A stretch of 63,739 bases of DNA, counting the filler, from Folioceros fuciformis (Eukaryota): the NCBI GenBank assembly GCA_049999805.1. It is 7 parts of 6 records of this genome, joined end to end, with 100 filler letters (N's around TTAATTAATTAA, not from the genome) between each part and the next. Parts side by side here need not be neighbours in the genome. Positions count along the whole stretch, not along the records: positions 25,418 to 42,740 come from JBNGIO010006088.1; 6 more parts are not named here. One strand, 5' to 3'. A program made the position numbers and the translations under genes. Positions 10,874 through 42,840 of the stretch are shown here, piece after piece; position 1 is the stretch's first letter; each line of letters opens with the position of its first letter. Under the pieces are notes generated by a model. That model was not told the DNA's origin. It was given only the letters and a program-made list of their open reading frames with translations, and made no database searches.

Positions 10874-11711
10874 CCCTGCACAGCAGATCCGAGGAGAGGG
10901 GACAGGGACACACAAACTCCCTCCCCCTCCACAACCACTAAGGTCACTCCTGCCTGGTGCATAGGCTTCAATTGACGCCCAATTCGGTACCTCGAGTCAA
11001 CGCTCCTCCCCACTCCAGTACGATTTTGCCTGTGCCCAATTCACACAATCGCTTCGTCCCGTATTCACCCCCAAGAAATTCATGTTCCACCGAACTTCCC
11101 CTCCTTCGATCCTCCTGGGATGGTGACACACGACAATTGCTCACTCAAAAAGCTCCCTCCTTGACCACCAACTCCTCCTGAAAAATGCACTATCACTAAG
11201 TTCTACGTCAGACCGGTCTGCACCTGAACCCACAAGGCCCGGAGTCCCAGAAATTCTGGACAAGCCACTTCTGTGAGGTTGATAGAAACTGGAATCCCCA
11301 AGGCCATGAGCAACCGCAGCTTGTCGCCATGAGACGGGGAATTTGAAAACCATGTTGCAGCTACCCTCGGTTGGGAATGATCGAATCACGCGGGAACGTC
11401 CAGTTCGAGGATTGAACTCAACACATTTGAATCCCGATTAAGAAAGCCCGTCTACTGACCAAGTAGAGAGACACACGTATGAAGATAAAGAATAGGTTCT
11501 TCTACTGTATCCTTACCTGCACCTGTTTTACCCCTGGGCTGCTGCTGGACGTGAAAGGCTGTGACTGCGTTCTGCCGACGAGCCGACAGTGTCAATCCAC
11601 GCAGACGGAGGAAATTCTCGTGATGTGCCGCGAATTCTGATCAGCTGAAGGGAGCCGTAGGTTTCGGATTCTGCGGGAGGAGGGTACGCAGCTAGGAACT
11701 CGCAGTGAAAC

Positions 11712-14380: not shown

Positions 14381-15741
14381 CTACTGGCTACCCATTGGAA
14401 ACCTCTTCAGTGCGTCCACCTTGCCATCAACATAGCGCTCCACGATCGCCACCATTCGCTCATACTTGTCCGGATGGTAATTGACATGGATGCTAACTGG
14501 CCTCCAGTTGTACTGGAAAGGCTTCTCCCTGAATTCTTTAAAGAGAACCTTGCTGTTAAGGAACAGCCAGAAATCGAGAACCCTCTTAGAAGCATGCAGC
14601 CCCTCGTAACCGGGATGAGATGGGAAGAAGAGCTCTTCGTTGAAGACTGCCTGATCCCAGGCGTTCTCCCTGGAGAGCCTGGAAGTCACTCTATCAAGCA
14701 GCTCAATGGAGGGTCGAGTTGCCCGGATGTAGAACAGTCCAGAGTTGAACACCCAAATGCGCATGGTGTGCGCATATCTGGACCAGCCCATGCTCGGGTC
14801 GTCAGACACATCGTCGAACCCGTAAGCTGTGTTGTTGTCGAAACCGTCAGTCATGCCTTCCACATCACAGTCTCTCGTTAGGTGAGGCCATGGATTCTGC
14901 AAGAACAAGATGTCGACATCGGACAGGAAGACATTGTAACCCAGCACCAGAAAGTCCCGCAGCAGATGGAACTTGAGTCCAGACACTGCATGGTTGTGGC
15001 CAGCATTCTGTTGTGCCCCGGATATGGTAGCATCCCGCCTGTAGTAAGGAACCTGGTGGTCATCCGCAAATTTCGCCATATCATCGTCCAGAGCCACCAC
15101 AAGCAAGTTAGTCACACCTACTCTCTGGAGACTCTCGAACCACAGCTTCACCATACGTTTCACGTGGCTGTCACATATGCCCACGACCAACTCGTTGTTC
15201 ACTGCAACCTCCTTCAAGATCTTGGCCAGTTCCGGGTTCACAGACTCATCAGGCTCCACCAGAGGCTGCGTCCGGAGACCCTTGACCTTCCCCGGCGGCC
15301 CTGCCTTCCCGGTAGGCAGGGCTGTGTTCAGCTGCTCCAGCACGACTTCCCTCTCCTTCTGCACAACTCCCAGTTGCCTCTTCAGGTCCAAAACCATCTG
15401 CTGCGCTTGGAAGCGCTCCTCCTCCAATTTGCGAACCTCCGTCTCCAGTTTGACCAACTTCCGTCGAATGATGGGATTCTGCAACCACAAACAGACGTCT
15501 CTAATGCTCCGATCGACCCAAAGGGCTCAAGATAGTCATAATCGGATGACAGCTGCACGCACACAGCTAGGTCTACCTGCGCATCGCTGTCGTTGTTTAG
15601 CTTCACGCGGGAGCTGAAGGAAACCGGATCCGCAGGGTAGAGCAAGGCTACAATCAAGCCCAAGCCCAGGCCCACTCCAACTGCATACAACACCGCCCAC
15701 CTTTTCCCCTTGGCGGGGAGGGCCTCCTTCCTACCCTTCAT
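14381..15741 (-). CDS. RRA: RRA-type extensin arabinosyltransferase (GT77), type II membrane protein, 2 exons
   Basis: N-terminal TM segment (VLYAVGVGLGLGLIVALLYP), one intron at about 15480-15576, a coiled coil, then the DxD motif FLSDVDILFLQNPW and DGFDNNTAYGFDDVSDDPSMGWSRYAHTMRIWVFNSG typical of RRA1-3. Confidence 0.92.
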
Positions 15742-21890: not shown

Positions 21891-24800
21891 ATGGCAGCGA
21901 TGGTTGCGGAGGCGGCAGCGGCAGCAGCGGCTGCGTCCACACCATCGCCGTGCCTGAGGAGCGCCTCTGCCAGTCCCGCCGCCGTGCTGCGCTCCTCCTT
22001 CCTCCCGCAGCTGCCGCCCCGGGGTCTTCGACCTGGTGCCAGACCCTGCGCCGATCCTTGGAAGCGATCCAGAGCTGTAGCGGCTGCGGGGGGGGCGGTG
22101 GAGGTCCTGGTGCGGGGAGCTGCGCAGATCGGGGCCGTGGGATGGGGCACCTCGTTGATTGTTCCAGCCGTGCTATGGTACGCCACAGCCAGGCCCGGGA
22201 GCGTGTCCGGGGTGCTGGATTTCGTCTACCAGCCGATTTATTCCCGAAATCTCGTAGTTTTCTCGGCGGAGGAGGTGCCATAAGTTTCCTTGTCCCTGTC
22301 TTGGATGAGACAATGCCGTAGGAAGAGTGTGGATGAATGCTTCGATTTGGCCGGCTTGAGATTTTACTTTCTTTTGTGCGAGATTGTGCAGCGGTTGTGG
22401 TTTTGGACTAGCTGATGGATGTGTTGTCGGTTTCTCAGGTGGAGCTGGGACGGCAGCTAGGGGAGGGGTCGTTCGGTGTGGTGTACGAAGGGTATGTCGG
22501 GAAGAACGAAAGGAACGGCAATGGGGAGAAGGATAGGCTTCATGTCGTCTTGAAGAAAGTGAAGGCCAAGGTGGAGGGAGCCTGTGAGGTGCACGATGCG
22601 GAAATGCACATGAACGAACGGGTGAAGCGGACCGCTCCTAACGCGTGTGCGGAGTACCTTGGGGCTATGCATGTGAGTGCGGATCAGGTGAAAGGACGCT
22701 TGACGGAGGGGTTGTGGCTGGTGTGGCGGTATCAGGGGGATCGGACCTTGCAGCATTACATGAGGCAGCGGAACTTTCCTGAGAACGTAGCAGAGGCAAT
22801 TCTCGGGGCGGGGGCCGTGGAGGGAAAGCGGGTTTCGAGGAAAGAGGTTGTGGAGTTTGAGTCGGCCATCGTGAGGAAAGTGATGTGCCAGATTTTGACA
22901 AGTCTGCACGAGCTTCACTCGTCGGGTGTGGTGCACAGGGATGTGAAGCCTTTGAACCTGGTGCTAGATCAGGAGAAAGGAGCATTTACACTGATAGATC
23001 TGGGTGCCTGCGTTGATCTGAGGTCGGGCTATAACTATCATCCGAAGGAGTCGATTATAGATCCGGTCTATGCCGCACCCGAACAGTATGTGATGCCAAC
23101 GTCTACTCCTCATCTCCCTCCTGATCCTCTCTGTTCCTTGATTTCCCCAGTTTTGTGGCTTCTCAATACCCCAGACAGATTCGATCTATATTCCACCGGC
23201 CTTGTTTTCCTACAGCTCTGCTTGAAGCCTCTCCGTAGTGACGTGGGACTGCAGGCCTTCAACATGGAGTTGAAGCGTGCGGATTATGACCTGGACGTTT
23301 GGCGAGAACAGGCTAGGATTCACAAAGATGAGTTCGCAATTCTGGATGCGGATAATGGTGCCGGCTGGGAGCTGGCGAAGGCCTTACTGCAGGAAACACG
23401 TTTCGAGGACGAGCTGGTTTGGCCCAGTCTTGGCGAAGATAGTAGGCCCTCTGCGTCGGGGGCGCTGAAGCACCGTTTCCTCAAACGCCATACGACTGCG
23501 ACCCGATTTTCTTTACCTAAAGCCCCCGCTGATGTGTTACCGCATTGGGAGTCTATCTTGCCACATCCAGGCGAAGCGAAGCGGCCAGAGCGAGGAGCCC
23601 CAGTTCATGCCGCCAAGGGGATTTCAGCGTCTGGGAAAACGGATGCCGGTCAAGTTCATTCGCGCGGGGCTGGGGTTAGCAACCAACGAGCTTCGGATGA
23701 TCACTGGGGTGCTGTATTTGCTGCAGCTGGGCTGGGCAAGAATGTGCCTGTCACTGTGGCTCGTGCCGAAGCTGAAGAGCATGCGGGAGGCAGCGCTAGC
23801 AGCAGTCAAGGTACGCACCTGATTTCAGGCGCGGTCTGGTCATGGTCTCCGGCTTCACAACGAAGGCCGTCAGAAGATGAGGATCTTGCAGCTGAGGCGT
23901 CTCGCAGTGGCACTGCTCAAGCGCCATCCTCAATTGCGAAGGATAGCAAGACTAAAGAGCATGTGGAAGGAATTGCGAGCAGTCATGGTCGTCAGAAAGA
24001 TGTGTTTGCAGGGTTGTTCTGGCCGTGGAATAGGATTTCACAAGAAAGCGTTTTGGCATCTCAAGATGGTGCTCCGAGTTCGGCATCGGGTGTTTCTGAC
24101 AGCAGCAGCGCCCACGTGCCTGCTCCAGGTCCTGCATGGCCGAGCGTAGGGGCACCAACAATTGCAGGTCCAGCTGTCGATATCGAGGATAGGAGTCAGA
24201 CAGTTCCGGCAGTGTATTCCCCTGTCGAAGACATGGACAAAGGTGCCGATGAGAAGGAGGCTGCACCTCCTGCCCCTGGCCAATTTGGTCCTGCAGGGCG
24301 GTCTGTTTTTGTTCCCGTAACCTCTGTTGCTGCAGGAGCAGCCGGTGTGGTTGCAGGCTGGTTGATGTTGGGAGCTTTCAAGACATCATCTGAATTCACG
24401 TTCGATATCGGTGGCCTTACTGATGCTGTGGGCATAAGCGGCTCCGCGTTTGTTGCATTTTTCTTTATAGTGAAGCCCCGGCTTGAGGATATGATGAAAG
24501 CAGAAAGAAAGGCGAAGTTGCGCAAGCAGAGAGCCGTTGCGACCGCAGGAGTGGTAGCAGAGTCGACAGCTATTCGGGAGATCATGGCAAGGAGTAGGCG
24601 AAACACAGGATCGCATAGCGCAGGACTGGTTGAAGCTATGCAGGCTCTGGATCAGCAGATGGCATCGTTGGAGGAGTCTATAGTTGCTGAACGACAGTAC
24701 GCTCTGGAGCAAATCCAAGTACTTTCCAAGGTGAAGAGTCTTTTGAATGGACGACCTCAGACCTTGTCCAGCCCCACAGAAAGCTTTCCGGACGAAGAGC

Positions 24801-24904
24801 GCCTTAGCAAGCCGTTCACAGACTTTCCGGACGGCGAGTCGCTTACCAAGCCATTCACAGAATACGTGGAATCGGCCGGAGTTACGGGCTACGTAGACCC
24901 ATAA
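21891..24904 (+). CDS. STN7/STN8 (STT7)-family thylakoid Ser/Thr kinase with long C-terminal extension, 2 exons
   Basis: Ala/Ser-rich transit-peptide-like N-terminus and a TM segment, intron at about 22276-22438, then kinase motifs GEGSFGVVY, VHRDVKPLN, IDLGACVDLRSGYNY, YAAPEQYVMP and SPVLWLLNTPDRFDLYS diagnostic of the STN family. Confidence 0.85.
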
Positions 24905-25417: not shown

Positions 25418-28400
25418 AACGTGCCCTAAAACTCAAGTTTACTGGCGTGTGTGTAAAAACGACTACGCGTCAATACTCCCCCTCGACAGTGACTTGGTTC
25501 TAGGTTACGGGCTTAGATGGCGTCCATGCAGCATGCGATTCTCCGCCTTTTCTTAAGTGTGTTATCAAGCATCTGGTGGTTGCTTCAATCGTGAGCCACC
25601 TGATTTCAGCTGTGAGTGACGATATTGAAAAGCTGGAGAAGACCGACATTCGTAGGCGTAGACGGGATTCAGAGAAATCCAAGCTGGAGAGGCGTTCTGG
25701 AACATCGCGTGCAACTTGGAAGGAAGTCAATATGGAGGAATTTATGCTAGCTATCTCAACACCCTTGCCTGATTTAGAAGCAACGTGGAGTCGAGGTTTG
25801 CGGGAATTTTGTTGTTGTAGAAGCCATAGCTGCAGGTTGTTGCTGAACTCCCCCTGTTGCTGCGCCGGGCTGTGAGCTATGAAGACTGATGTAGGCTTCT
25901 CTACTTATAAGGCCGATGCCCTGCACATGTCTTTCATGCAAGTGCTTCGGTAACCCCTTGGTCATAAGGTCTGCAGTGTTGTCGTTTGTGCTCACATACT
26001 TCAGTGCCACTTGCTTACCAGCTACGATCTGTCTAATAAAGTGATGTTGTATCTCAACGTGTTTAGTCCGTGCATGCAGCACAGGATTCAGAGTCATTGC
26101 AATCGCGGACTGATTATCGCATTGAAGCACTGTAGGCTGATGCTGCTCCTCCCCGATATCTTTTAAGAATTGTCTGACCCACAGAATCTCCTTGGCTGCA
26201 AGTGAGGTGACTGCATATTCTGCCTCGGTGGAAGAGAGGCATAAGGTGGGCATCTTCTTACACGCCCATGAAACACATCCTCCGTTCAGCATCATGCAGT
26301 AAGCGGCTGTGGATCGACGAGCATCTGGGTCTCTGGCCCAGTCTGCATCGGAGAAGGAGGTAAGTGTGAGCTTCCGTTCAGGATCACTTCTATAAAACAG
26401 GCCAAGTGTTTGGGTTCCTTTCAGGTATCTCAGGATGCGTTTAACATGCGTCCAGTGTGCCGTCCTAGGGTTTGAAAGGTATCTGGACGCAATATTGATA
26501 GCCTGAGCCACATCTGGTCGAGTCCAGATGGCCTGATACAGGATACTTCCTACGGCCTCACTGTAAGGTACGTTGACCATCTCCCTTTGCTCCTCAGGTG
26601 TAGTTGGGCAATTTTCTGCTGATATTTTATCACCTAATGCTATGGGGGTTGCAACAGGCTTTGCATCCTTGAGATTGAAGCGTTCCAAGAGCTGCTCGAC
26701 GTAATGTGATTGATGTATGAAGAACGTGTGATTCTTTGAGTCACGCTCAAACTGCACGCCTAGGGCGTACTTCAGCTGTCATAGATCAGAGACTTCATAC
26801 TCCTTAGATAAAAGGTCTTTGATCTTCTGTATGTAAGTTGAATCGTTTCCGAAGATGAAGTTGTCATCGACATAGAGTGTCATAATTGCGAACGTCTCCC
26901 CCTCTCTCAAGAGGTAAACACTAGGATCAGCAGATAGTGGAGTGAATCCGCATTTCTTCAAATACCGATCTATGGTCTCATTCCAGACCTGAGCCGACTG
27001 CTTGAGGCCATACAGAGACTTCAAAAGTCGGTAGACCTTCTTGCTGTCCTTCACGAACCCTGGTGGCTGCAACATATAAATTTCCTCGTTCAGGGTCCCG
27101 TACAAAAAAGCTGTTTTTATGTCAACTTGATGAATGTCGAGGTGGTAATGTGCTGCGAAAGCCAAAAGAAGTCGGATGGAAGTCGACTTGACGACCGGAC
27201 TGTAAAGACGGTTCTCCTCATAATCGAAGCCGGGAGTCTGTGTGAATCCTCTGGCGACGAGCCGTCCTTTGTATCTGGATACAGTTCCGTCTGGATTAAG
27301 CTTCCTCCGAAAGGTCCACTTACAAGATATGGGCTTTCTGCCCGGGGGCAAATCTGTCAATTCCCAAGTCTTATTAGCAATGAGGGAGTTATACTCATCC
27401 TGTGCAGCGGCTGTCCATTCTGAGGATTTAAAGGCTTCTTCAATTGTGAGTGGGACTCCCTGCATTTCAATAGCCGACAGTGCTTGGTTAAGAGCCATTT
27501 GAGCTTCCTGCTGGTGAGTATCAACGGGTGTGTCAGCTGTGGGAAGCTGCTTTTGAGTAAGGGTATCACCTGGAGTGTATGGAGGTTCCTTCCATTCATC
27601 ACGAGGAGGCCTATAGCGAGATGACCGTCTGGGAAGTTCCCGTTCAGGTTCGACAGCTAGTGGGGAAGGTTCAGGGATACCTGGGATGTCACGTACCTTT
27701 GGCTGCTGACTTGGAAGAAGGGTTTAAGTGGGCGGTGATGTCTGTACAGGTGCTTTAGAGTGAAGATCGGAGGTAGAAGATTGATGATGTACCTCTTGAG
27801 ATTGTGAGTCATCGGGATCATATTGGGCCCCCTCAAGATCAAGAGGGGAATCAGCAAAAGAGTACCCGTAAAGACTGGCGTTAGGCAGGGGGGAAGAAGT
27901 GTGGGTACTGGTGAGGTAATGGGTAAGTACACTGGTTTCGTTAAACTGGGCACTTCTTGAGTAAACGACCTGACGACTGTGAGGGTCAAATAACCGGTAT
28001 GCTTTGACGTGATTTGAATATCCTATGAATAGGAGCTTACGACCTTTGTCATCCCACTTGCTACGGTTATCATCTGCAATGTGAGCGAAAGCGGGACTCC
28101 CAAATATACGTAAGTGTGAAATTCTGGGGGAACGACCTGTCCATCTCTCATAAGGTGTAGTGTTTGGGAGATCTTTAGTTGGGAGTCGGTTCTTAAGATA
28201 AATGGCGGTGGAGGCTGCCTCTGCCCAGTAGCCCTTAGTCAGACCTGCAAGTTTGAGAAGAGACCTGGAAATTTTTAAAATGGAACGATTGAGCCGTTCT
28301 GCGAAAGGGTTTTGTGATGGGGTATAGGGGACAGTTATCTGCCTAAGGATGCCTTTAAGGTTGCAGAAAGACTGGAAGGCTTCGCTAGTGTACTCACCTG

Positions 28401-30981
28401 CATTGTCGGTGCGCAAGGTGCCGACTAAGAAACCGGTTTGGCGTTCTACGGTGGTGAGAAACTCTTGGAAGTAATCGAAGGCTTCACTCTTGTGTTTCAA
28501 AAAATAGATGTGAGTGTACCTACTCCACTCATCCATAAAAGTGAGGAAGTAAGAGTGTCCTCCGAAGGAGACTGTACTCATAGGACCGCAAATGTCAGAG
28601 TGGATGATTTCCAAAAGTCTTCTAGCCCTAGTAGGTTGAGGATCTGAGAAGGGAAGCTGATTCAGTTCAGTGTACTTACAAATTTCGCAGAAGAAATCTT
28701 GTGACACCTGGAGTTTAATTGGGTCTCTGTACATTGAGGAATTAGTAAGGGATTTTAGATACCTCGGGTTGATGTGACCGGCACGGCAGTGCCATAGCAG
28801 GGAGTTGGTTTTATTTTGTTCTGAAGAATTGTTTACCACAAGAGATGAGTGGGTTTGGATGTTGAGCAGATATAAATCATTGTAAGGTAGGCCATGAGCA
28901 AGGGCAATATGGTCAGGATCTTTGACATGGCTGATGGTACAGTGGTTACCGACAAATGTGATTACGAGGTCATGCTCGGTTGCTAACTTCCGAACTGACA
29001 GCAGGTTCTTTGTCATCGTCGGGACATGCAGAACTCCGTTGATGAGAAGGGTTTCTCCATTTGCAAGCCGTAGTTTGATATCTCCTAACCCTTGAATGGG
29101 TAATGCACTGTCGTCTCCAAGTAGGACGTGCTGGTCAGATGTCACTTGGTGATATGTGTCGAACATATCGATACTACTACAAATATGCGTCGTGGCTCTT
29201 GAATCAAGGAACCATCGGTGTAGATCTGTTCTGGTAAGTGTAAGGCATACTGCCAATATGGAGCATGCTGCGGGCAGCCTGTTGATGGTAGTGATATGTG
29301 ATTCATTCCTGGGATTGTCTCGACGAGGTTCGCCTGCCATCTTCTTACGGCACTCGTGTTCATAATGCCCGATAATTTTGCACCAGTTGCATGCTCCCTT
29401 CTGTAGTCTGTTTTGTTGTTGCCTCGGACCTGCATTAAAAGAGGGTCTCTGAGACTGACCAGCAGGTTTCCGTGAGGAGAAACTGCCAGGTCTGAAACCA
29501 CCCCGCCTTGCACCACGGCCTCGTGATGCAAACAGCACTTGATTGGCTCCAGTATTGGAACGTGAGGTGCCTATGCGGCTGGATTCTTCTTCGAGGAGGT
29601 CTGCAACAACTTCTGAAAGTGTGCAAGGTGCCGAAACTCCTGCTTGGGCTGCCTGTCGAAGTGCCGTGTTTTGAGAACTGACGAACGTTCTGTATGAGCC
29701 AGGCAATGAGGTTAGAAGAGTAACCGCTGCCTGCAATTCTGTGAGAGTAGTGCCGCTGGCGGCCAACTTGGCTCTTGCGGATCTGAACTTGTGTATGTGT
29801 TGCTCAACGCTGTCAGATTCTTTCATTCTCAATGAGTAGAATTGACGTGTTGCATTTACAAGTGACATTGAGCTTTGGGCTTGGAACATCTCGTTGAAGG
29901 TGTTCCAAATACCGTTAGAAGTTGCCTAGCCGTGTGTATGTTGTAGCATGTTCGTATCGATTGCTGAAATAAGGATGTTGCGGGCACGTTTGTCGCTTTT
30001 CTCCCATGCTGCAATCTGGTCATGAGTTGCAGGCGGAGTTGATGTTGTGGATGGCTTGGGACATGTGCCATCGACGATGCCCATAAGGTCGTGCTCCTCA
30101 AGCAAGGCTTGAATTCTGATTTGCCATATGTCGTAGTCGCTCCCTGTGAAGCGATCGCGGTCTTTGAATTCCACCTTTGTGGTGTTAAAGGTTAATGTTG
30201 GGTTGGCTGGAGTGCTGACAGGTTGATGATGCGTTGCCATTACGCGGCGGCGGTGCCTGGTGCTGCTGGCTTGTGTTGCTAGGGGATCGAAATCGAACAT
30301 ATGCTGCAAGGATCAACAGATTAGTGATCCAGGTAACCTACTTGCGCTTACAGAAATTGTACAGTTCTCGGTAGAGGGCTTCCAGTTGCGACTCTATGCA
30401 GTTCAGCTGAATCTTTAGATACTCAGGACTTGCGACGACTGCAGAAGGAAAGGGAAGATGCGTAGGGTATGTGGAGAATTGCGCTTGAAGGTGACTCGAA
30501 ACTGGTGGGCGTGGTGGTGCTAATGCAGGTCGCGACTGTGGAAGATGGGATGGTGTCCTGTGCGCGGCGGCTGAGCAATCGTTGCAAAATTTTGTGGCTT
30601 GTGGAGCAAGTCTGCCTTGTGGCGCGAAGCACGCTGGATGGCGGCGCCGAGGCATGCTGAAATCGGAATTTCAAGTCAGGGTGTTGCAGAGTACGCCGAC
30701 CTTCATGTTGCGAGAAAGCCGGGTGGAGGCGAAGCCAGGCGGCGGTGAGCCAACCGGCTCTGATACCATGTAGATACGGTAATAGTAATAATCTCATATT
30801 AGAAAGGGGTATTAAGTGCCCTTATATAGGCTTACATAAAGCGGTTCGTAACTGCTGCTATATAAGTGTTTTAATAAAACTACTTAAACTGCTTAAACTG
30901 TTTTCTTATATCAGCCCTAGCGAAACGTGCCCTAAAACTCAAATTTACTGGCGTGTGTGTAAAAACGACTGCGCGTCAATA
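25418..30981 (-). mobile_element. Ty1/Copia LTR retrotransposon 'Copia-A', near full length
   Basis: 5' LTR 30769-30981; tRNA-iMet PBS TGGTATCAGAGC at 30757-30768. Gag with CNWC..GH...C knuckle, protease WFLDSRATTHIC, integrase (HSDICGP, LRTDNAGEY), RT (LYVDD), RNase H (SDADWA). PPT at 25476-25484 and a 3' LTR remnant at 25418-25475 cut by the linker. Nonsense codons at 29926 and 26779 plus a frameshift near 27720. Confidence 0.95.
30338..30655 (-). CDS. Small upstream ORF of Copia-A between PBS and gag (105 aa, C-terminal leucine-zipper-like segment)
   Basis: ATG-initiated ORF MPRRRHPACFAP...EYLKIQLNCIESQLEALYRELYNF. Both ends are homologous to the same position in Copia-B. Confidence 0.55.
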   Translation of the reverse strand: MPRRRHPACFAPQGRLAPQATKFCNDCSAAAHRTPSHLPQSRPALAPPRPPVSSHLQAQFSTYPTHLPFPSAVVASPEYLKIQLNCIESQLEALYRELYNFCKRK

Positions 30982-31164
30982 CCATTTGACAGCTGCAATG
31001 AGACATTGCCGGTGCCTGCTACAGCCAGGGCGCTATCGTCTCCCAGGAGAACATGTTGGTCATCTGGTGAGTCGTGATCTAACTCAAAGGCTTCCTTGCT
31101 ACTGCAAATGTGCGTGGTTGCACTGGAGTCCAGGAACCATCTGTTTTCATCTGTTTTGGTGAGT
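30982..31164 (-). mobile_element. Copia-B protease segment, continuation of gag 39123-40143
   Basis: Reads LTKTDENRWFLDSSATTHICSS...VLLGDDSALAVAGTGNV. Joins in frame to ...VLAICLTL once the DNA transposon and one TGAGT are removed. Confidence 0.9.
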
Positions 31165-31478
31165 ATCATGGTCTAACCCAGACGAGCGGATTCCACAAAG
31201 CCCCTTTTGCGCATTTCACATTTGTCGTGATTCACGTTCCTTATCTACTTTTGATCTAATTTCACAAACAATAACACCACCGACATGTATCCAAATATTT
31301 TGGTTGCTGCAAAGGTCAATAAAACCAAATTTACTGAAAAAAATAGTTTGAGTCTTCTATATGAAACTTGATATTTCGCAACGCTAAACTTGTGGTGCGC
31401 CAGTCAATTGACGCACAAATTTTCCAAAGTACTTCAAGTTTACGTTTATACCAATTTCAAATTAAGTCAAGTTTATTC

Positions 31479-34271
31479 TCAAACAAAAAAAGGGTCGTCC
31501 TGGTTGGCTTTGGAGTCCACAACTACATATAAATCATTCATCCGTTGTGCATCTGTATTGCCAAAGTCATTAGCACCCACTCGAAACACCGAGAAGTTGG
31601 GGTCCTCTGTAGTTTGAGGCGGCAAAGTGCAATTCTTATCCCAGACAGTGATGGCGTAAAGGTCTTCCGCAGGCTTATCATCAATTTGGTATATGACCTC
31701 TCCTTTCTTGCTCAACATAGTGAACACCATTAGTTTGCGGTCCACGCTCCCATCACCGCACACTTCCTTCGCCCAAAACTTTGATGGGCCTCGCGTAAAC
31801 GACTCTATCGTAATCTCCTCATCTAGGTCAGGCAAAGACCCTAGCCCGATAATCCGCTACATAATATATGAAGTGTACCTGACATCCACATCGATCGCAA
31901 CCGCATGCCTTCCGTGCTGAACAGCACTTTGGAGAAGAGATCCCAGACAACAGCGTATAGGGTCGTCTGACAAGAAAGGCCTTCATTTCCAGTACATTCC
32001 TTTGAATAACCTGGTATTTTACCTTTGAGTTACTCACCGGAACCTGAAAATCCAACAGCCCTACGTCCATATCCGCTGCCGCCAACTTCTGCTTCTCCTC
32101 TTCCATCCTTTTCCAGTTTTTCTCCGAATAAATGAAATCCTGGAATGGCTTCGGTAGGGACTCCAAGTCTGCTATCTTTGAAGGTTTCTACAACCAGAAT
32201 GGTACATGTTAGTTTGGCTACCGATAAAGCTACTTCAGCATGAACAGACATGAGTGTGCCAGTAGATCGGCGCACTGGGGCCTGCTGGAGCTGCAGTGCG
32301 CCGGTCTACCAGTGCACTGCTTTCGGCTAGAGTCCAGTGCGCCGGTAGACCAGCGCACTCTTGCCGGAAGCTGCTCGTGTGCGCCGGTCTACCGGCGCAT
32401 TGGGGCTGGCTCGGGGCCAAGTGCGCCGGTAGACCGACGCACTCCTGCTTAAGGAACCGGATTAGTAACACGAGAAATGATCGCAAAAACTTACCACTTT
32501 GGCGAAGGCTATCTGGAATTTTAAGAGATGACCATCTTCTGTGTGCTTCGGGTAGATCTCTTTGGCCTCTTCAAAGGTGCCGCACTTCATTGCCATTTGC
32601 AATGCATGTTGTATCAGGTGGATCTTCTTCGTCTTCCCCACTTCAGTGTCCATGTCCCACAATTGAAGCTTTCCCTGGATGACCTTCTGCATCACCGCTA
32701 TCAACATCTCCTCTCCCTTCACACCTGTTGGGACGCCTTGGAAGGCTCTCCATGGCCTGCCCTACATCGCTCCTGGCCTCCTGCTGCTGTCTTCGGTAAC
32801 CTGGGTAACAGAACTTTGCAGGGTAGAATCTCCTGTCTTCCATTTTGCCTTTGCCCTCTTTGTTGTCTCGGCTGTTACCATGCTCTTCTTCCCACATTCT
32901 AACGATCATGTCCACATTGTCCCAAAGAACACCTGAGCATCTGGCTACTTGACATGGCAAGGTTTGCCTGTCCACCATCTTCTACACCCAGTTCTGTGTC
33001 GTGGGGATCTCCACCTTCGTCAGTCATCCCTAGCAACCTGTATAGGTTAAACTTCCACTTGACTGGTGGCTTCTCTTCCCCTAAATGATTCCTGAAAAAA
33101 ATGTCGAGCTAGTCATGGATGTATCGCACCTACTCAATGAACCCCATCCTCTTCCACTTGTCTGCATAGACATTGTGGTTGACAGCGAAAACCCTCATCT
33201 CTTCCTCTGTCAACCCAGCATACACGTGCCCTTGCATCCATTCATACTTATCTTCTGCGGGGAACATCTAATGGAGTTTCTGCATGGCTGCAAAGCAGTG
33301 GTTGCCCCCTAAGACTCCCATATGGTACTGTTGCGCTGTGATCCTGTCCAAGGAAACCTCTTCCTTGCTCACTACTTGCTTAGGATCAAGCATACACAGG
33401 AGGGGCAAGATCCCTTCCTTAACAGAGCCAGCCTGCATCTGCCTCACTAAGCTTTTCATCCAAGCTTCGTCTACCAGCCTTATCTGTGCGTCAGAGGTGA
33501 TGAAAGATGCAGGATACAAAATATCCACATGTAGATCAAACGTTGTGGACCTAATCCTCTTGGCATGGGCCTTCTTCCTTATTCCATTCAGGTAGTCCTC
33601 ATCCTGTGCTAACCTCTCAAACCTCTCTACTACCCAAGTTAGCTCTGGCTGCACCTGCTGCACTACGCCGCCCTTCCGTCTCTTCTGCTTCGCTGCCTGC
33701 CCTCTTGTTGTAGTGCCTGCTGCTTTTCACCGCTTCGGCTGCGGAGATGTGGCTATGGAGACATACAGGAGGTGTAACATCGGGGTCAGCGGTCAGTGTT
33801 TTAGCAGTAGAATCAAGGTAGCCAAAAACAAACCCACAGCAAAATGCTCAGCTTGCACACAACAGCCTCACCGGATGTCATCTTCCGCTGTTTCGCAAGA
33901 GATGCTGATGCTCTCCTCTTCCGCTGCCCTAGTGCGCTGGTAGACCGGCGCACCTGGGTCACCCTCTTCCGTGGTGGAGTGACCTCAACTGGGGACTCCT
34001 CAGATGCATCTCCCTCGCAGGAATTGCGGGGCATCTCTAGAGCATCATTCAGACTGTCTTCAGCTGAGGAGTACTGAGCCATCTCCTCGACTTCCTCCTC
34101 TTCACTGTTGTGTTGTGGAACGTATGGTGCCTCCTCTTCTGAAACCTCAGGCTGCATATGAGGCATCTCCTGCTTGTCTTTCACGAATCCCACTGCACGA
34201 GTGTTGAGGACTCCGAATTCTGCTTGCACCGGCTTCCGCTGCCGCTCCCCAAGCCGCGCCACAAGAGCCAT
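31479..34271 (-). pseudogene. Transposon cargo gene with a ParB/Srx-like N-terminal domain; spliced, decayed by stops and frameshifts
   Basis: Acidic/basic disordered N-terminus, then IRLVDEAWMKSLVRQMQAGSVKEGILPLLCML...YHMGVLGGNHCFAAMQKL...HVYAGLTEEEMRVFAVNHN, which follows the ParB-N pattern. An in-frame GT-AG intron at 32188-32494 joins FAKV to KPSKIADLESLPK. Confidence 0.65.
32253..32443. repeat. Array of five 24-bp palindromes AGTGCGCCGGT-NN-ACCGGCGCACT, period 41-42 bp
   Basis: Copies start at 32253, 32295, 32336, 32378 and 32420, separated by 17-18-bp non-identical spacers. Confidence 0.92.
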
Positions 34272-34393
34272 ATTCTTCAGCACCGCGTCTCCTACGCACC
34301 GCAAAACTGTTCGACAAAACTGTTCTCCACCCTAATTAGCGTAAAAAAAAAACACAAAAGTTAGGGTTTAGGATAATTCTCAGTAATGACATT

Positions 34394-35230
34394 TTAACCT
34401 TTTAAGCTGATAAGACCACTTACATCCTTCAATAAAAGACAACCTCTTAGCGCGTTTTTCATCCACAGTGGTTCGCATCGGCGAGGTATGGCTTTCGCAA
34501 CATTCACAACCACTAAACTATGACTATCGTAGTCATCCATAATGTGGCTTGGTGGGTGTTGGGTGAGGATGAAATTCAAGTGAGTTTCGTCGTCTTCACC
34601 GTCCACTGATGCACAAAGAATCCATCCTGCCCTTCGTGCTTCGTGCTCCGCCAAGCCTTGAAACCCATTCACCCACAGAGCAACAAGAGGAATCCACAGC
34701 AAGTTCAAGTCATCAGGCTCATCTTCAGCTATCAAAAACCATTCCTTATCAGTGTTGAATCTTTTGGCCAAAGTGTCTTCTAACTTCTTCAGTCTCAATC
34801 TCTCTACAAAGTTGTAGGCATTCGGAATGTTGTAATTCTGATTGCCTCCTGTATTGCCTCCGTGATTCACATGCAGCAGAATGTCATTCAGAGGTCCTTC
34901 ACTTGCTTTTGAATTGGATGCTCTCATGCTCCCACTTAAGTTATCCTTTCTTCCTCCGGCGGTCTGGGCAATGGGAGTAGTTTCTTTGCCAGCGGGTGGT
35001 GTAGGTCGATGTCCATCCCTATCGGTGTTGTGACCAGACGACGCTCGCGAAGTTGCTTTCCCCGGATTCCTTTGCTTTCGTACTCGTGGAAGCGCCTTAA
35101 CATCCCTGTCCACAAGCTGAAGTTTGTTGACGACCAGATGCCATTGGTACATGCACCGGATTTGTACAAGAAAGAATTCGAAAACGAACTGTTCAGCTGA
35201 AACCAAATATCCACTGTTGCCAACCGCCAA
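34394..35230 (-). CDS. Uncharacterised transposon-internal ORF (up to 278 aa)
   Basis: Open frame inside the element. The C-terminal ~140 aa look globular; no motif recognised and the start is uncertain. Confidence 0.4.
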   Translation of the reverse strand: MAVGNSGYLVSAEQFVFEFFLVQIRCMYQWHLVVNKLQLVDRDVKALPRVRKQRNPGKATSRASSGHNTDRDGHRPTPPAGKETTPIAQTAGGRKDNLSGSMRASNSKASEGPLNDILLHVNHGGNTGGNQNYNIPNAYNFVERLRLKKLEDTLAKRFNTDKEWFLIAEDEPDDLNLLWIPLVALWVNGFQGLAEHEARRAGWILCASVDGEDDETHLNFILTQHPPSHIMDDYDSHSLVVVNVAKAIPRRCEPLWMKNALRGCLLLKDVSGLISLKG

Positions 35231-35787
35231 TGCATTTATAGCGTGATGGAGGTCGTATCAGGCGGAGATTCTTGCTGAACAGTTAGTTCTATTTTTACTC
35301 AAACATTCAAATCTAATTAGCGTGATGATGGTCGTTTCAAGCGTCAATTCTCGCTGAACAGATATTTTTATTTCTGGTCTAAGGTTCACATTGCATTAAA
35401 CACTCGTGCTTCGGGACTTGGTGGAGGGGCATTGTTACAATGCTGCACATTTGAAAGCCAGCCAAGCCGAAGGGTATACACACACTGTTCTTTCATGCTT
35501 CCATGGCAAACAAACCTTCATCATCGTGTCATGGTATGGAGAATTTTTGTGAAGATAGAAGCGACGAAGGTTTGGAAGAACGAACGATGCTTTGTGATCG
35601 TGGATTCACATGACTATGATTTGCTTCTGTTTTACTAATCTGTGGATGATTCTTATCCCCAGGAGACCATCCTTCCATACATCAATTTGAGGAGTTGAGG
35701 TCGTCGCCAATCCGTCTAAGTCTTCTGGACAAAGTTCATAGTTCTCTAAGCCCGTCATCTCCGCGACATTCATTTGTAGGCGCAGTG

Positions 35788-38595
35788 ATGAAGACTACAC
35801 CTCTACGAGGAAACGCCGATGTCCATAGGTTCTATGGAGGGAGTGGCGCAGAAGGTTGGGGCGTAGGTAGTGGAACACATATGCAGGAAGTGAACGATTC
35901 CATGAATGTGAATGAAGAAGGGCATTGCAGTCAAGAGAGTTCGGACTCAAGACATACACCTAGCCAGCGGTCGACCTTTAATCAGAAGCCAGCGTCGGAG
36001 TCAGTGATCAAAACACCCTTAGATCATCGACGATGTTGGCGGAAGAGACCTTCAACAATACCAGAGGCTAAGTGTTTAGAGCTTCGCATTTCTGTTGGTT
36101 ATAGAAAGATATGCTATGCGAGACAATGTCTGAGACTGCTTGGTAAACCAGGATTTAGAGAGTTGCGATATCGTTTTCTAAAGATGAGTAGGACAGAAAA
36201 AGAAACCTTTTTGCAGGCACATTTTGATGTCGAGAAGACTGAGAGCACACGTCCAATCGCGGAACCATTCTTACTTGGGTTGGGGAAAATAAGGTGTTGT
36301 CGAGACGCTTTCAGAAGAGTGTACTGTATTGGTTCAAATAGATATGAGGGAGCGAAAGAACGTGCTTGTGGGAACATTGTGTGGTCCGAAGCTATCCGCT
36401 CAGAGCCACAGGCTCCAGGGTACGTCGCTGCCGCGTGCGTATGGATGGATCAATTGTTTCTCCTCATTGCAGAGCGTATGCCAAATGTTGAACTGTACCA
36501 TTTGCCCAACTCTTACATAGAGGAGGAAATTTTCATGGGCTACAAGCGGCAAATGAGCTGAGCAGAACAATACAACATTTCGTACTCTTACTTCCGTCAA
36601 CTATGAGCCTCGCACTTCCCAAAAGTGCGCATTCCAAAAACGAACAGATTTTCCTTGTGGAAATTAGTTCTTTGGGTTATGTTTTTCAATTCCATGATGT
36701 TTGTTGCACATGTTCCTAGTCTGGTGCTGTTTAAGGTGACATAGGGAGTGCGCCGGTCTACCGGCGCACTCTCGGCGGGTCAGGACTAGTGCGCCGGTGT
36801 ACTGGCGCACTCCCGCCGGGTGAGGACAAGTGCGCCGGTCTACCGGCACAATTTTCCAGATGCATGAGAAAAGTGCACCGGTACACCAACACACTTCTGC
36901 AGCCAAAAGTTAGTGAATGCTGACTTAAGTTCCCGTTCATGGAAGAGGGTTTCGAAAGCGACTTGAAAGTACATCAACAAAGACTGAAGGCACAGCGAGA
37001 GAAGAGTATCAAGCATCGTGTAAAATGCTATGGCGATCCGGCTAAATACCTGGGGTTGTCTATAGATGGAATGGATCAGCAAAAAACTCAGATTCCTCAT
37101 TTTGTGCGACTTCCAAAGGACTTGGCAGACGTTGACCTTATTCACGTCCATGTTGTAGGATACATGGTGTACAATAGCACAATGTCGCTTGAGCTCTTCA
37201 TAGAGTATGAAAATATATGGAACGACACGAACTTAACAATTTCTATTATCCATAATGTGATTCATGTGTACATTGGACTTCTTCCAGGAGTTATGTACTT
37301 GCAGTTGGACAACACAGCAAGAGAGAACAAAAACGCTTTGCTGTTTTCATATCTGAATATGTTAGTGGAGAAAGGAATCTTCAAGAAGGTGAAGGTGGGG
37401 TTTTTACTAGTGGGCCACACGCACAACCACGTGGACCAGATGTTCTCCTGGTTTTCGATAGCTCTGGGAAGGAAAGAAGCACTGATTTTACCTACACTCA
37501 TCGCTGTTATGTAGAGTTCTTATACACCTATGCCAGCAGTGCATGAAGTGAAGGAGGTTCCAGACTTCCGGCAATTTGTGTGGCTTATACCTTACGGAAA
37601 AGCCGGTTATCAGAATGTATCAGCTGTTCACCACTGCACAATATTTCGTTCCAACACCAGTTCAAGATCACAAGGGAGAGCCGAGGTGAATAGAGCTTTA
37701 TAACAGTGATGTGCGGGAAGCAGTATTGTACAGACGAATTTTGGTCACCAGATGAGGGTATCGAGTTTCTGAAGCATATTCCGGACACAGATATCAAAGC
37801 TGCTCCATTTTTACATCTACAATCTAGGAGCAAAAAACAAAGGACAGTTTCGGACAATGTCGTTGAATATCATCTAGCACAAATCATATCAAAACTGGAG
37901 ATGCGATTACAACAACACTTAGGACCAAGCGAGAGCTTGTGGTGGGATGGGTTTTGGGTAGAGCAAGAGGCTATCGTGCATTCTATAAACTCCGGTGTAG
38001 ACAGAGACCTTGATTCTCCTTGGCGGTAGTATAATCGGGAGGCGGCAGAAATATTGAACACACCCGTTACTGTACCAGACGAAATGGTTGTTCACAATCC
38101 ACGCATCCGTGAGATTCCTAGAAGAAACATGTATGTGGGGGCATACCGTAAGGAGACGGACCTCAATGATGACCGCGACAATTTGAACGGGGATATAACC
38201 GAAATAGAAAAAGGGCATATGATTGCAGTCCCTTGCAAGACTGACGAAGACAATAGGCTGTTTTGGATTGCCAAAGTCTTAGAGGCAGATATTACATGCG
38301 AAAACCATATGTCAAAGTGCACTAGTGGGTAACCAAATGTTCATATGCTTTTGAGGGTCGTTACCAAGAAGAGATGATTTTACCACATGAAGCTCCGCCA
38401 AGAGGGTTACGTGGCGGTCGCAGACACAGGTCAAGCAGAAGACTTAGGAAGCATATAGATACGTTATTCATTGAAGACACGTTTATTCTAGCATATGGAT
38501 TTGACTTAACGCGCCAAAAACAGCTTCCCTCCCAAACGAGGACTCTCAATCGTGAACAGGATACACTGCCGCCTGAAAATAATGAAAACTTGTAA
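35788..38595 (+). pseudogene. DDD-type transposase of the DUF7869/Sola-like group, disrupted
   Basis: Cys-containing N-region (CCRDAFRRVYCIG), HFPKVRIPKTNRFS, core motifs LSIDGMDQQK, YLQLDNTARENKN and FLLVGHTHNHVDQMFS (36939-37514), and a C-terminal KGHMIAV...LFWIAKVLE segment. Several premature stops. Confidence 0.8.
36747..36895. repeat. Second array of four 24-bp palindromes, period 41-43 bp
   Basis: Copies start at 36747 (perfect), 36788, 36829 and 36872. They lie in a non-coding interruption of the transposase gene. Confidence 0.9.
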
Positions 38596-39122
38596 GACTT
38601 TTAGATAAAAGTGTTAAGTACAAACAAGTATGATAATTATTGTATATAGCGCCGGTCAAGTTCCGTTTTCCACTTGACATACATGTGCCTTTAGCAGTGT
38701 GCGCTGGTCAACCAGCGCACTCTCGCTTGTTCCGTGCTGGGTCACTGGTGTTCTATTTCGCCACTGTTTCTGAAAAATGCATATAGATATCAACATGTGA
38801 TAATTTTGAGGAATAGGGTCACCTGATATGAGGTATCGCTCAAACACCTACGACTTTACATGGAATACGATGACAAGTGAATTACGTGATACCCGCCATA
38901 TTATGAGGTTTTGTCATGTATTTGATTGCAATGACACCTGCAAATTTGCTAGTACTTTGGAAACAATTGATGATTAAGTTTATACTCAACACTCTTTTAG
39001 GCCACATTTCAGGTTCTCCTGACAAAAACAAGGGAAAATGTGGATATCTGACACGAGTTTTCAGCGTCAAAATCTCGCGAAGCCCAAAATGGCGGAATAC
39101 ACCCTTCTGGGTTAGACACTAT

Positions 39123-40904
39123 TGAGTGTTAGGCATATTGCTAGAACAGAGGTTGGGGAAGTTGACTTTGTGCTTGTATAGTGTGACTCGTTACGAGGTG
39201 GGTCGCGACGAGGTTTGCCAGCGAGCTTCTTCTTACATTCATTCTTGTAGTGCCCAGGAATGCGGCACCAACTGCACGAGCCCTTGGTTCTGCGGTCGAA
39301 TTGTTTGTCACCACCGGAGGATGGGTGAGAGGAAGGTCTTCGCATTCCAAAATTGCCACGGCCGCGTCCTCTTTCCGTGAATAGCACGTGAGTGCTAGAT
39401 TGGGTTGTCTTGTGACTTGCAAATCTGCTGGATTCCTCCTCGAGGAGAGCCGCTACTACCTCGGTGAAGGTGTAGTTGGGTGTATGTCCTGCTGCAGTTG
39501 TTTGGATTGCAGCACGGATTGCTGAATTCTGTGCGCAGATGACTGTTCTGTATGCAGGTGGCAAGGAGGTTAAGAGGGCAACTACAGCCTGCAGTTCACA
39601 TATCACAGTACCTCTTGAGGCTAGCTTTGCTCTGAGGGACTTGAACACGTTCACGTGCTGCTCAACACTATCCGAATCTTTCATTATGAGGGAATAAAAT
39701 TGTCTCGTAGCGTTGATGAGGGACATGCTGCTTTGAGCTTGGAACATGTCTTTAAAAGTCTTCCTGATTGCATTGGAAGTGGCTTGACCATTCGTGTGTT
39801 GCAGCATGCTTTTGTCAATGGTATAGATGAGGATAATTCTAGCGCACTTGTCCTTTTTGGTCCAAGCTGCGATTTGGTCAGAAGTTGTAGGAGGAACAGA
39901 TGAGGTTGATGGTATGGTGATTGTACCGTCAACGATCCCCATGAGGTCGTGCTCCTCAAGGAGCATAGTGATGCGCATTTGCCATATGTCATAATTGCTC
40001 CCTGTGAAGCGGTCTCGGTCTCTAAACTCTAATTTGGTTGTATTGATGATGTTGGTGGTCATTGCTATACGCTTTGCAAGACGGGTGAGTTTCTTAGCAA
40101 TCAGGTTGGTTGTGTGCTCACCTAGTGGATCATAACGAGGCATTCTTCTCTTTAGAGTGCTTCGGATTCATTGTTTGTGTGTACTGGTAAATTGGAGATG
40201 GCAACGAGAAGTGCCTCCATCTGCGACTTATCAAAACTAGCTGACTTTTAAGGTAATCTTCGGAGGAGGTAGCAAGGTTGCAAGGTGCTGGAGAGATCGT
40301 GCTGCTGTAGCGTGCAAGAAGGCTGTTGCTCTGTGGATTCTTGAAACGCTTCTTGCTTCAGGAAGATAGTATGGTCGGATGATAGAGGTGTCTCTGCAGT
40401 AGTTGTAGGTTCGCGTCCATGGTGGCATCACTGGTGGTGTGCGATGAGGCTGTGTGAGTGCGATGAGGCTGTGTGAGGGCGATTCGGCTTGGGGCATTTA
40501 TGCTTGGAGCATAGCTCGCCGGGGTGCGACGCTGAGGCATGGTAGATGGCCTAGGATCGTCAAAGCTTGCCTCCGTTGCTCCGGGTGCGTGCCATTACGG
40601 GTGGCTGAGAAGAGCAAGGTGCAAGGCGCGTGCGCGAAGCCAAAGGGGGCAGGTCTCTTCAGCTCTGATACCATAAACTGGAAGCAAGATTTATGGAAAG
40701 GATAATTACATTGATGATCAAGGGCTTAGTTATACAATTGTTTTCTGCAGTTATAACTGCTCGCTCTGATAACCGTATCTAAGTTATAACTGCTGAGGTT
40801 AAGTATAGTAAGTTCAGTCTACCATGTTTAATTAATGCCAAGTATCCATTCATGTGAACCATGCCCTAATCAACCAGTGTAGTCGGCGCATGAGGATTTC
40901 AACA
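39123..40904 (-). mobile_element. Copia-B 5' part: LTR, PBS, upstream ORF remnant, gag
   Basis: PBS TGGTATCAGAGC at 40662-40673; putative LTR 40674-40904 (TGTTG...TTTA). Gag (40143-39123) is clearly related to Copia-A gag (DRDRFTGSNYDIWQ, CSWC..GH...C). Confidence 0.88.
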
Positions 40905-41936
40905 GCTCGTGGCTTGGGGCCACTCGAGGCTAGACTACCCTTAGAGAGGATCGAGCTCATAGCTAGTCAGTTTTCCACACTAGCTGCATACATGAATGGT
41001 GTTAAAAAATAGCAAGCTTTGATGCCGTGCAAGGAACCCAACACCATAGATTCGATACCCATGCCCACATTTAAAATTTTCTATTCTAAACTTTCCCCAT
41101 GTCCTCAATGCTAGCAATTTGGCCATTTTCGTGGATGTCTTTGACTTTGTTGCAGGAGAGGACAAAGGTTGTTAGTAGGGGATAGAGGTTCTCAAGAGAG
41201 GAATGGAACTTGCCATCCGTGATCTCAGTTATGCATTATGGGTCTACCTGAAGGAATCAACATCAAGGAATTTGGCCTTCCAAGGATAAACTGCTGTTGT
41301 TGCAGCAGTTATGGCAAGAGCATTGTAGGATAGGGCTGTAGTAGACTATTCTTGTGTAGTGTCAACCGGCCGTGCAAGCAACAGCCGCTCTAGCATACAC
41401 ACTCATGGATTGGGATCCGGATCTACTGGAGATGGGTGGTGGAACAGATGACGGAGCTCACTCTTCTTCCACACTGCCTGTAACAAATGGAGTGCAGCCT
41501 GTAATTATGCCCTAAGGCCTTGCAAGGGGGGAATAGTCTCCAACATCCTTCACTTTTTGAGCAGAAGAGAACAGAGCTTCTCCAGTCCTGATCAAGGAGA
41601 AGAAGGGGACTTGTCAGCGCAAAGTACATAAGGAGTTGAGGATGAGCTGGTTCAGCACCCACTAAGGGGACATAGCATTTCTACATGTACTCCAAGAGCT
41701 CCATCGAAACAAGGTCAGACTGAGGCACGTCAGTTACATATTCGATGCTGCCAACCAAGAGATCGACTGCCCGACCCAAGCGTCGTTGCATAATCAAACT
41801 GTAAAGATGTTGGGCCCGCTTATTTAGGTCTCTCAGGGGTGAAATATATGCGATTATCGGTTATGTTACACGAGAGTGGCATATACTTACATAGACACGT
41901 ACATAAATGGGCATGCCACGTGGAACGAACGTGGGG

Positions 41937-42461
41937 CTCATAGTCATGGTGAGATGCTAAGGCTAAGAGGATCCCGAGTGAGGTTATTTTAAGTACGGGG
42001 CTAAAGGTTTCGTCGTAGTCAAAACCATATTTTTGAGAGTATCCCTTTACTACTAATCTAGCTTTGTATCTTTCTATGCTCCCATCAGCATTTAACTTAA
42101 TCTTAAAAGTCTACTTATAACCTAATAGTTTTCTATCCTTAGGTAAAGAAGTTAAGGTCCAAGTATTATTAGCTTGTAGGGATTCTAGTTCTGACCTGAT
42201 TGCCTGTTTCCAGTGTTTCTTTGGTGGGCAGGTGATCGCCTCTTGATAGCTAGCAGGAACAGATTGATCTATTGCTGCATTAAAGCAATAAGCTAGTGTA
42301 TTCTTAGGGTCTTTCCAGTTAGTAGGAGAGTACCTATTTATCTTGCCTGCGTTAGAACGCTGAGGACGTCTTCCTCTAGTGTTGTCAGTATTGCCGGGTT
42401 GTTGAGAGTCCTCGTGGGTGTCCTCATAGTTAGGGTCTTCATATATGGCATTATCTAGCAT
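41937..42461 (-). mobile_element. Degenerate Copia RT fragment
   Basis: VPASYQEA...WKQAIRSELESLQANNTWTLTSLP, followed by [32 protein letters not shown]. Confidence 0.8.
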
Positions 42462-42840
42462 ATTTGTGTTGAGTTATCGAGCTCTATATGAGCTAAACTC
42501 ATGTGGTGTTAGTTATCCCAGTTGGGTTCATACTAGACTAGTTCTAGTTATTAGTGAACTTAGGATAGTGTAGATTATCCCATATTGAACCTGGAAGTTG
42601 TGTAGCCCTAAATGTACTACTTAAATGGAGACCTCGGACCTCCATAGTAAGACAGTGGTGATGTGTATTGTTTTCATGGTTGTGATCACCAATACCACCC
42701 TCTCTTCTCTCCTCTCCTCTCCTACACTTACACGTAGACTNNNNNNNNNNNNNNNNNNNNNNNNNNNNNNNNNNNNNNNNNNNNTTAATTAATTAANNNN
42801 NNNNNNNNNNNNNNNNNNNNNNNNNNNNNNNNNNNNNNNN

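Follow-up and report, generated by a model that had tools for sequence, protein, structure and literature searches.

Transposons that would mark their own DNA through a ParB-like protein have been proposed in algae. In the brown alga Ectocarpus, the Sola1-type element Sola1-1_Ec32 carries an accessory gene encoding a ParB-like protein with an N4C/N6A methyltransferase, which is proposed to bind and modify its own element, and Iyer 2011 is cited there for similar algal proteins (PMC12477816). In Bostrychia, the ParB-like gene PAG3 of a Plavaka transposon adjoins tandem inverted-repeat arrays, which are proposed to be parS-like self-modification sites (10.1101/2025.02.11.637652). The self-marking design is thereby already in print for algae; in the accessible text of these two 2025 genome papers it is put forward without a site sequence or a test. 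Here, we describe a transposon of Folioceros fuciformis (assembly GCA_049999805.1) that carries a gene for a ParB-fold/DNA-methyltransferase (ParB-methylase) together with many copies of one 22-bp palindrome, a candidate binding site for that protein. The element lies in the JBNGIO010006088.1 part (25,418-42,740) of a 63,739-nt stretch of seven joined parts, hereafter the window, and L-numbers such as L042 label other loci in the same genome. New here are the exact sequence of a 22-bp candidate site, the presence of three protein clades, each with its own site variant, and a variant catalytic motif, D-x-P-R, that is conserved. A literature search found no land-plant report of such an element.

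The Folioceros element resembles Sola1-1_Ec32, a Sola1-type element with AACCG-CGGTT termini, in its AAC...GTT-like termini, in its 4-bp target-site duplication (TSD) and in having the accessory gene on the strand opposite to the transposase, whereas the Ectocarpus element is 21.5 kb long with 282-bp terminal inverted repeats (TIRs) and the Folioceros element is 8-9 kb long with short ones (PMC12477816). No binding site is named in the accessible text of the Ectocarpus paper (PMC12477816), whereas a 22-bp site is found here at five places and in three clades, alongside a D-x-P-R motif IV. In Bostrychia, the transposase is of the EnSpm/Plavaka type, ParB is fused to a 2-oxoglutarate oxygenase, the methylase is encoded by a separate gene, PAG2, and the arrays are adjacent to the ParB gene (10.1101/2025.02.11.637652); the Folioceros array lies in an intron of the gene. 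VANC of the VANDAL elements is likewise a DNA-transposon accessory protein with a family-specific motif, piled up by tandem repeats in introns, intergenic DNA and terminal DNA, and its anti-silencing activity is experimentally proven in Arabidopsis (PMC5735166), whereas any such activity of the Folioceros system is a prediction. Tandem arrays of a family-specific motif in non-coding DNA are found here too. VANDALs are, however, Mutator-type elements with non-palindromic motifs of 8-9 bp, and their accessory protein has no ParB or methylase domain reported in the accessible text (PMC5735166); the fold and Pfam matches obtained here point to unrelated domains.

The bacterial ParB/parS, Noc/NBS and KorB/OB systems share with the Folioceros system a ParB/Srx fold followed by a helical domain, and clustered palindromic sites in cis. 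The Folioceros protein differs in being eukaryotic, intron-containing and methylase-fused, and in having GGNHC in place of the arginine patch; a Pfam scan of 12 and 9 open reading frame (ORF) pieces of the element found no ParA. Bacterial parS is about 16 bp long, and the Folioceros site 22 bp. Marchantia DN4MT1, compared by class, is also a bacterial-type beta-class amino-methyltransferase of a seed-free plant, but it is a host gene acting genome-wide in sperm, with no ParB or transposon context in the accessible text (10.1101/2021.02.12.428880), and the ParB-helix-turn-helix (HTH) Dam fusions form another class (PMC4738411).

A palindrome repeated across the element

A sequence-only reading of the window had described five palindromes in an in-frame GT-AG intron of a ParB-like gene, and their coordinates, spacing and cores were all as described when the sequence was read again. 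The five 24-bp palindromes (32253-32443; starts 32253, 32295, 32336, 32378 and 32420) share the consensus AGTGCGCCGGT-NN-ACCGGCGCACT, lie 42, 41, 42 and 42 bp apart with GC-rich spacers of 18, 17, 18 and 18 nt, and have the central dinucleotides AG, CT, AG, CT and AG. The array is real and not a chance occurrence: the palindrome pattern matched 10 times in the window, compared with a mean of 0.00 in 100 shuffles, and 208 exact degenerate sites were found genome-wide, compared with 0 for a control pattern. Seven more copies, overlooked in that reading, lie between 31395 and 38721 of the same element, so that its 12 sites form five clusters, namely the intron array and four other fixed places. 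These are a decayed left subterminal palindrome with a CA core (31395-31416), a single palindrome within a coding exon (33931-33954), a second array of four palindromes (36747-36895; at 36747, 36788, 36829 and 36872) in a likely transposase intron, the donor and acceptor of which are clear in subfamily C copies, and a right subterminal palindrome (38698-38721), which is a 33-bp-spaced pair or run in many copies. The single palindromes stand about 230 and 400 bp from the two element ends.

When the majority sequences of subfamilies AB and C were compared over the 22-base site, 21 bases were identical at the left single site, 19 in the exon, 20 at the right site and 21 in the first array unit, while the flanks of these sites retained only 3-11 of 22 (non-coding) and 6-17 of 22 (exon). 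Between the same subfamilies, the proportion of nonsynonymous differences (pN) is 0.07-0.13 and that of synonymous differences (pS) 0.80-0.86 in the ParB-methylase gene (0.095 and 0.77, respectively, in the transposase); the saturated synonymous sites and low pN show that the ParB-methylase gene was under purifying selection. Because the motif has been kept at dispersed homologous positions while synonymous sites and non-coding flanks diverged, the comparison indicates that the palindrome is a selected, family-specific site. Slippage cannot hold single sites kilobases apart alike.

The site variants differ by ParB clade. Loci of clade 1 contain 182 sites scored as motif M1, the window's palindrome, and 6 scored as M2; clade 2 loci carry GGGCGCCGGC-NN-GCCGGCGCCC palindromes and clade 3 loci TGGCGC-type ones, at the same relative places as in clade 1. 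As a partial independent check, genome-wide patterns for the other-clade palindromes found 8 and 5 sites, with 0 for the controls. Four of the 8 sites are in clade-2 ParB-methylase loci and the other four have no protein match, and all 5 of the second set either neighbour a DUF7869 gene or fall within DNA homologous to loci that have one. Sites from an adjoining element of another clade are present in L067 and L064. An independently mobile micro-element, resembling repetitive extragenic palindromes or miniature inverted-repeat transposable elements, was ruled out, since element homology is present in 19 of 21 motif-picked loci; in the other two, the array lies where the contig ends.

Across 62 scanned loci, some of them near-duplicates, 384 sites were recorded, and the first 20 loci gave 180 in the real sequences and 0 in shuffles. 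Intron arrays comprise 2-14 units among copies, and the unit is kept while the linkers differ in length (9 to about 65 bp) and in composition, being GC-rich in some and AT-rich in others. The spacing modes are 41-45 bp in the window's subfamily, 62-63 bp in subfamily C, 73 or 41 bp in the transposase intron and 33 bp at the right end, with further modes of 39, 45-47, 80-81 and 87-88 bp. The idea that the units are helically phased on one DNA face is unproven: 41-43, 62-63 and 73 bp are whole helical turns, but the further modes are off, and the 169 of 235 intervals (up to 100 bp) that fall within 1.5 bp of a multiple of 10.5 reduce to about nine modes, around half of them off-phase, for which reason phasing is not claimed. 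Conserved spacing with free spacers, also described in the sequence-only reading, did not hold up among copies, in which spacing varies from 33 to 88 bp and the spacers are duplicated, shuffled and inverted relatives. The window's own four spacers show no mutual resemblance above chance (scores 5.5-10), but each has relatives in other copies, the best of which score 12-16 against a null maximum of 11. Among 104 spacers from 25 loci, 85 clustered at a score unreached by shuffles, through 131 same-strand and 13 reverse links, and 19 were singletons. Such related, duplicated and inverted spacers show that arrays turn over by duplication, deletion and inversion; protein-binding sites had been preferred to slippage in that reading, and the pattern of a selected site bears this out, but slippage or duplication does build the arrays.

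The alternating orientation reported for the five units is true of this copy and not of the family: strict AG/CT alternation occurs in one of 39 arrays of at least four units, namely that of the window, and adjacent AG/CT core pairs are in the same orientation 88 times and in opposite orientation 61 times. AG/CT cores account for 301 of the 384 sites and CA/TG cores for 37, with CG and AT also seen; AG/CT, CG and AT cores fit what we take to be an AccI-type site, GTMKAC, and CA/TG cores do not. Similarly, C>T or G>A changes make up 8 of the 9 departures from the array consensus, as had been noted, but they occur at the decay rate of exon CpGs and are nothing special to the array. Alternation and mutation bias are both incidental to the finding. 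Tandem arrays of the same palindrome were also observed with an 87-88-bp AT-rich period, a 39-bp period and a 33-bp period (L041:156-740; L126:1501-1757; L131:642-829). In L072, L091, L095, L096 and L101, the arms run up to about 7-8 bp past the 24-mer in locus-specific yet symmetric letters, which suggests that they were symmetrised by fold-back or that the subfamily C site is longer.

The ParB-methylase gene

The gene lies on the minus strand. Its last exon (31479-32187) encodes an N6/N4 methyltransferase of the beta class (PF01555, E 1.2e-7 in sister copy L042); here the window copy has a deletion of about 505 bp at 31943/31952 that spans motif IV to motif I. The array lies in a phase-0 GT-AG intron of 307 nt (32188-32494; GTAAGT...CTAAC...TAG), whose removal keeps the reading frame. 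Its donor and acceptor are conserved in other copies, and at the 6 loci where both could be matched its length ranges from 184 to 764 nt; 32188-32494 is a predicted conserved intron. A single 329-nt contig from one run maps elsewhere in the element and is uninformative on splicing. The middle exon (32495-34331) encodes an acidic region, a ParB/Srx-fold domain (about 33000-33560) and a helical domain, according to a model of sister copy L040, and is broken by several in-frame stops in the window copy, including three TAG codons in the ParB core. A likely upstream GT-AG intron (34332-34423), with its GTAAG donor and AG acceptor conserved in copies, separates it from a likely first exon (34424-35257), which is conserved, with related ORFs in L036 and L042, and whose start codon is not fixed; it gave no credible Pfam, atlas or homolog match.

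The ParB domain was undetected by Pfam and PDB sequence profiles and is visible by fold alone. The AlphaFold2 model of L040 has a predicted local distance difference test score (pLDDT) of 85.6; its top Foldseek match is Noc (7ol9, E 4e-4), ParB comes next and sulfiredoxin is matched too, and VIA structural alignment gave PadC (Z 9.8, root-mean-square deviation (rmsd) 2.9, 99 aligned residues) and KorB (Z 9.1). The gene had been called ParB-like from sequence, which these matches to Noc, ParB, KorB and PadC support; its methyltransferase half had been missed. The ParB box reads GGNHC in clade 1 and GGNH[ST] in clades 2 and 3. The arginine patch through which canonical ParB binds cytidine triphosphate (CTP) is GxxRxxA.

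In the methyltransferase, motif IV precedes motif I (FADLPRG, then QKP...DACAGSG), the S-adenosylmethionine-binding loop is present, and the best PDB sequence match is M.RsrI (E 0.002). Motif IV is D-[LVM]-P-R(-G) in most copies of all three clades, which share just 30-45% identity (L036, L042, L051, L058, L062 and L064), the exceptions including one W and one decayed copy. A HMMER search found 33 relatives of the accessory protein, the nearest named ones being in Chara and Adiantum, and the ParB-methylase fusions of these two keep D-x-P-Y(-G). The change from tyrosine to arginine in motif IV is old and conserved, and the arginine could reflect either altered chemistry or a pseudo-enzyme. The family also extends beyond plants and algae, since its ParB-like domain is present (E 2.8e-8) in a protein of an animal, the ribbon worm Lineus longissimus (P0009). 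A word-indexed homolog search with the window's ParB piece and first-exon piece gave no matches, which is weak evidence, and a metagenome scan with the methylase found no relative; atlas comparison recognised the protein poorly and pointed weakly to fungal DUF3723 clusters (0.91-0.92).

Candidate readers of the site

Each ParB clade has its own site variant, as described above. ParB-family proteins bind palindromes, and in Bostrychia inverted-repeat arrays accompany a ParB gene although the transposase belongs to an unrelated superfamily; the ParB-methylase is therefore the best candidate reader of the site. We consider it probable, though well short of assured, that the palindromes are parS-like binding sites for the element's own ParB-methylase. 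A protein dimer would read the two 10-bp arms, and arrays may accumulate in introns and in subterminal DNA, where an additional site would carry no cost. Binding would bring the methyltransferase-like domain onto the element, where it would write a mark other than 5-methylcytosine (5mC), such as N6-methyladenine (6mA) or N4-methylcytosine (4mC); if the D-L-P-R variant is inactive, the protein would instead bind and shield the DNA. The element would thereby escape host silencing and remain expressed or mobile, as VANDAL elements do through VANC, and we infer that the system works like VANC with parS-like parts and is not a member of bacterial ParABS.

Several observations weigh against this explanation. 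The canonical aromatic of (D/N/S)PP(Y/F/W) is absent from motif IV, which is D-[LVM]-P-R and not DPPY. CTP clamping is doubtful because the ParB box reads GGNHC instead of GxxRxxA. The helical middle domain folds well, but it has no Foldseek match, and its alignment to the KorB DNA-binding domain (Z 4.5-4.7, rmsd 3.9, 101-110 of 114 residues) is below significance and within the range of noise. Motifs M2-M4 were picked by eye from the same loci in which they were later tallied, and no site is present in 5 of 10 clade 3, 1 of 7 clade 2 and 4 of 31 clade 1 loci. The palindrome CpGs are unprotected and undergo ordinary 5mC decay: CpG transitions are 0.157 in palindromes versus 0.120 in exons for AB, and 0.110 versus 0.132 for C, and decay within the motif follows the order CG > CHG > CHH. 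A check for 5mC loss thus found site CpGs decaying as exons do, in copies that are all old and broken. In addition, DNA-modifying enzymes can be activated by phage ParBs in which no DNA-binding domain is obvious (PMC13229309), so fusion alone is no proof of site binding. Finally, ParB and transposase clades travel together in this genome, and phylogeny therefore cannot tell which protein reads the site.

That co-segregation bears on the main rival, in which the palindromes serve the DUF7869 transposase for end pairing or transcription activation and the ParB-methylase does another job. The motif type follows transposase clades as well as ParB clades, the single sites near the ends are retained in the short deletion derivatives L034 and L074, and a transposase is able on its own to bind cognate copies and activate them (10.64898/2026.08.24.746577). 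However, most sites lie deep within the element, in introns and an exon, and have no sequence in common with the TIR, whereas AtMu1 binding peaks at TIRs (10.64898/2026.08.24.746577), and in Bostrychia it is the ParB gene that the inverted-repeat arrays accompany, in an element of EnSpm type (10.1101/2025.02.11.637652). We regard transposase sites as unlikely on balance. No clean transposase-only control family was found in the genome, and the DUF7869 loci without sites (L085-L087, L089 and L090) were rejected as a control, being old fragments nested among ParB-bearing clades.

It is improbable that the palindromes are a neutral minisatellite that no protein binds, produced and homogenised through unequal exchange and fold-back replication. 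Unit numbers of 2-14, runs of near-identical spacers, inverted spacers, arms that run a few bases into the local sequence, the expected result of symmetrising repair, and decay at the neutral CpG rate all fit such an origin. They are opposed by isolated sites kilobases apart that are conserved despite saturated synonymous sites, by a unit kept while its linkers vary in length and composition, and by the change of all positions together in other clades.

Slightly less probable still is a role of the intron as RNA, in which a long hairpin would give small RNAs or regulate ParB-methylase splicing. The intron folds at -148.9 kcal/mol (z -8.0) and has two weak Rfam microRNA-family matches, far under the gathering score; a hairpin had been suggested as possible in the sequence-only reading, and it is, but it follows from any palindrome array. 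However, the same site also lies in an exon, in subterminal DNA and, within the gene on the opposite strand, in an intron. Cores are oriented at random, the spacing and spacers that would set the hairpin are not conserved, and non-deamination changes in sites are two-sided in just 4 cases versus one-sided in 208. A CRISPR/TIGR-like guide array, suggested by regular palindromes with different 17-21-nt spacers, or a shufflon with recombinase-cut 11+2+11 sites, suggested by the inverted homologous spacers and by an asymmetric 2-bp core resembling serine-recombinase sites, is most improbable and already largely refuted, as the spacers are 68% GC relatives of each other, the two spacers searched genome-wide matched solely within arrays (1/1 and 8/8), linker length is variable, and the scanned element ORFs include no recombinase or Cas-like family.

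A more far-reaching form of the ParB-methylase explanation is possible but tentative. Seed-free plant transposons would carry a eukaryotic ParB/parS system in which the protein loads at element-specific palindromes and spreads, and the D-L-P-R methylase writes a mark (6mA, 4mC or other) that blocks 5mC silencing; the three clades would then be orthogonal, co-evolved pairs of writer and address that avoid cross-talk. If the ParB-methylase does bind and mark its own element, transposons would have, after VANC, a second and unrelated means of addressing their own chromatin; it could also be a source of 6mA or 4mC in the genomes of plants, and would amount to a small programmable system of site and writer.

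The transposon and the rest of the window

The whole Sola1-like DNA transposon, a decayed copy of 7,959 bp (31165-39123), has termini and TSD read by eye from the flanks. It interrupts a Copia gag-pol, with Pol_BBD (PF22936) to its left and gag (PF14223) to its right. The TSD GAGT (31161-31164, plus strand) is repeated at 39124-39127. The TIRs are imperfect, the left one, A(A/T)CAN-GGTCTAACCC..., occupying 31165-31195 (plus strand) and the right one 39093-39123 (minus strand), and the termini are AACAN...NTGTT in most copies. A 4-bp TSD is present in 5 of 7 loci with both ends matched (the window, L033, L034, L039 and L042), the other two being uninformative (L035 has an N flank, and the right match of L074 is not a true end); the TSDs of the four other copies are AGAG, CTCC, ATGA and CAAG, and the TSDs are not AWWT. 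The stop-broken transposase gene (35650-38600, plus strand) matches PF25273 at 36924-37511 (E 3e-38). The TIRs, 4-bp TSD and AAC...GTT-like termini are features of Sola1 elements, and the transposase is tentatively placed with them by its DUF7869 match, through a presumed link between DUF7869 and Sola transposases. Searches of the genome gave 111 DNA, 110 ParB and 92 DUF7869 matches, which are matches and not copy numbers. The window copy is dead; what makes the system valuable is the family as a whole. In the deletion derivatives L080, L067, L074 and L075, the methylase end is fused straight to the transposase, with palindromes retained.

Elsewhere in the window, N runs around TTAATTAATTAA at 25318, 42741, 45584, 57820, 60135 and 62526 are linkers and not biology. 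Exons of the SPAG6/PF16 flagellar gene lie at 2103-4013 (plus strand, E 1e-58), and host ORFs for a nucleotide-diphospho-sugar transferase and a protein kinase at 14381-15526 (minus strand) and 22412-24904 (plus strand), respectively. The flagellar gene, the Chara and Adiantum relatives of the accessory protein and the CG > CHG > CHH order of decay point to a host among the seed-free plants or near them. An uninterrupted ORF of 1,686 codons (5936-10996, minus strand) contains internal repeats of 216 and 276 bp and has a weak RFC1-like AAA lid match alone. Nested tandem repeats with periods of 15, 24, 30, 46 and 55 bp lie between Copia pieces at 55434-57211.

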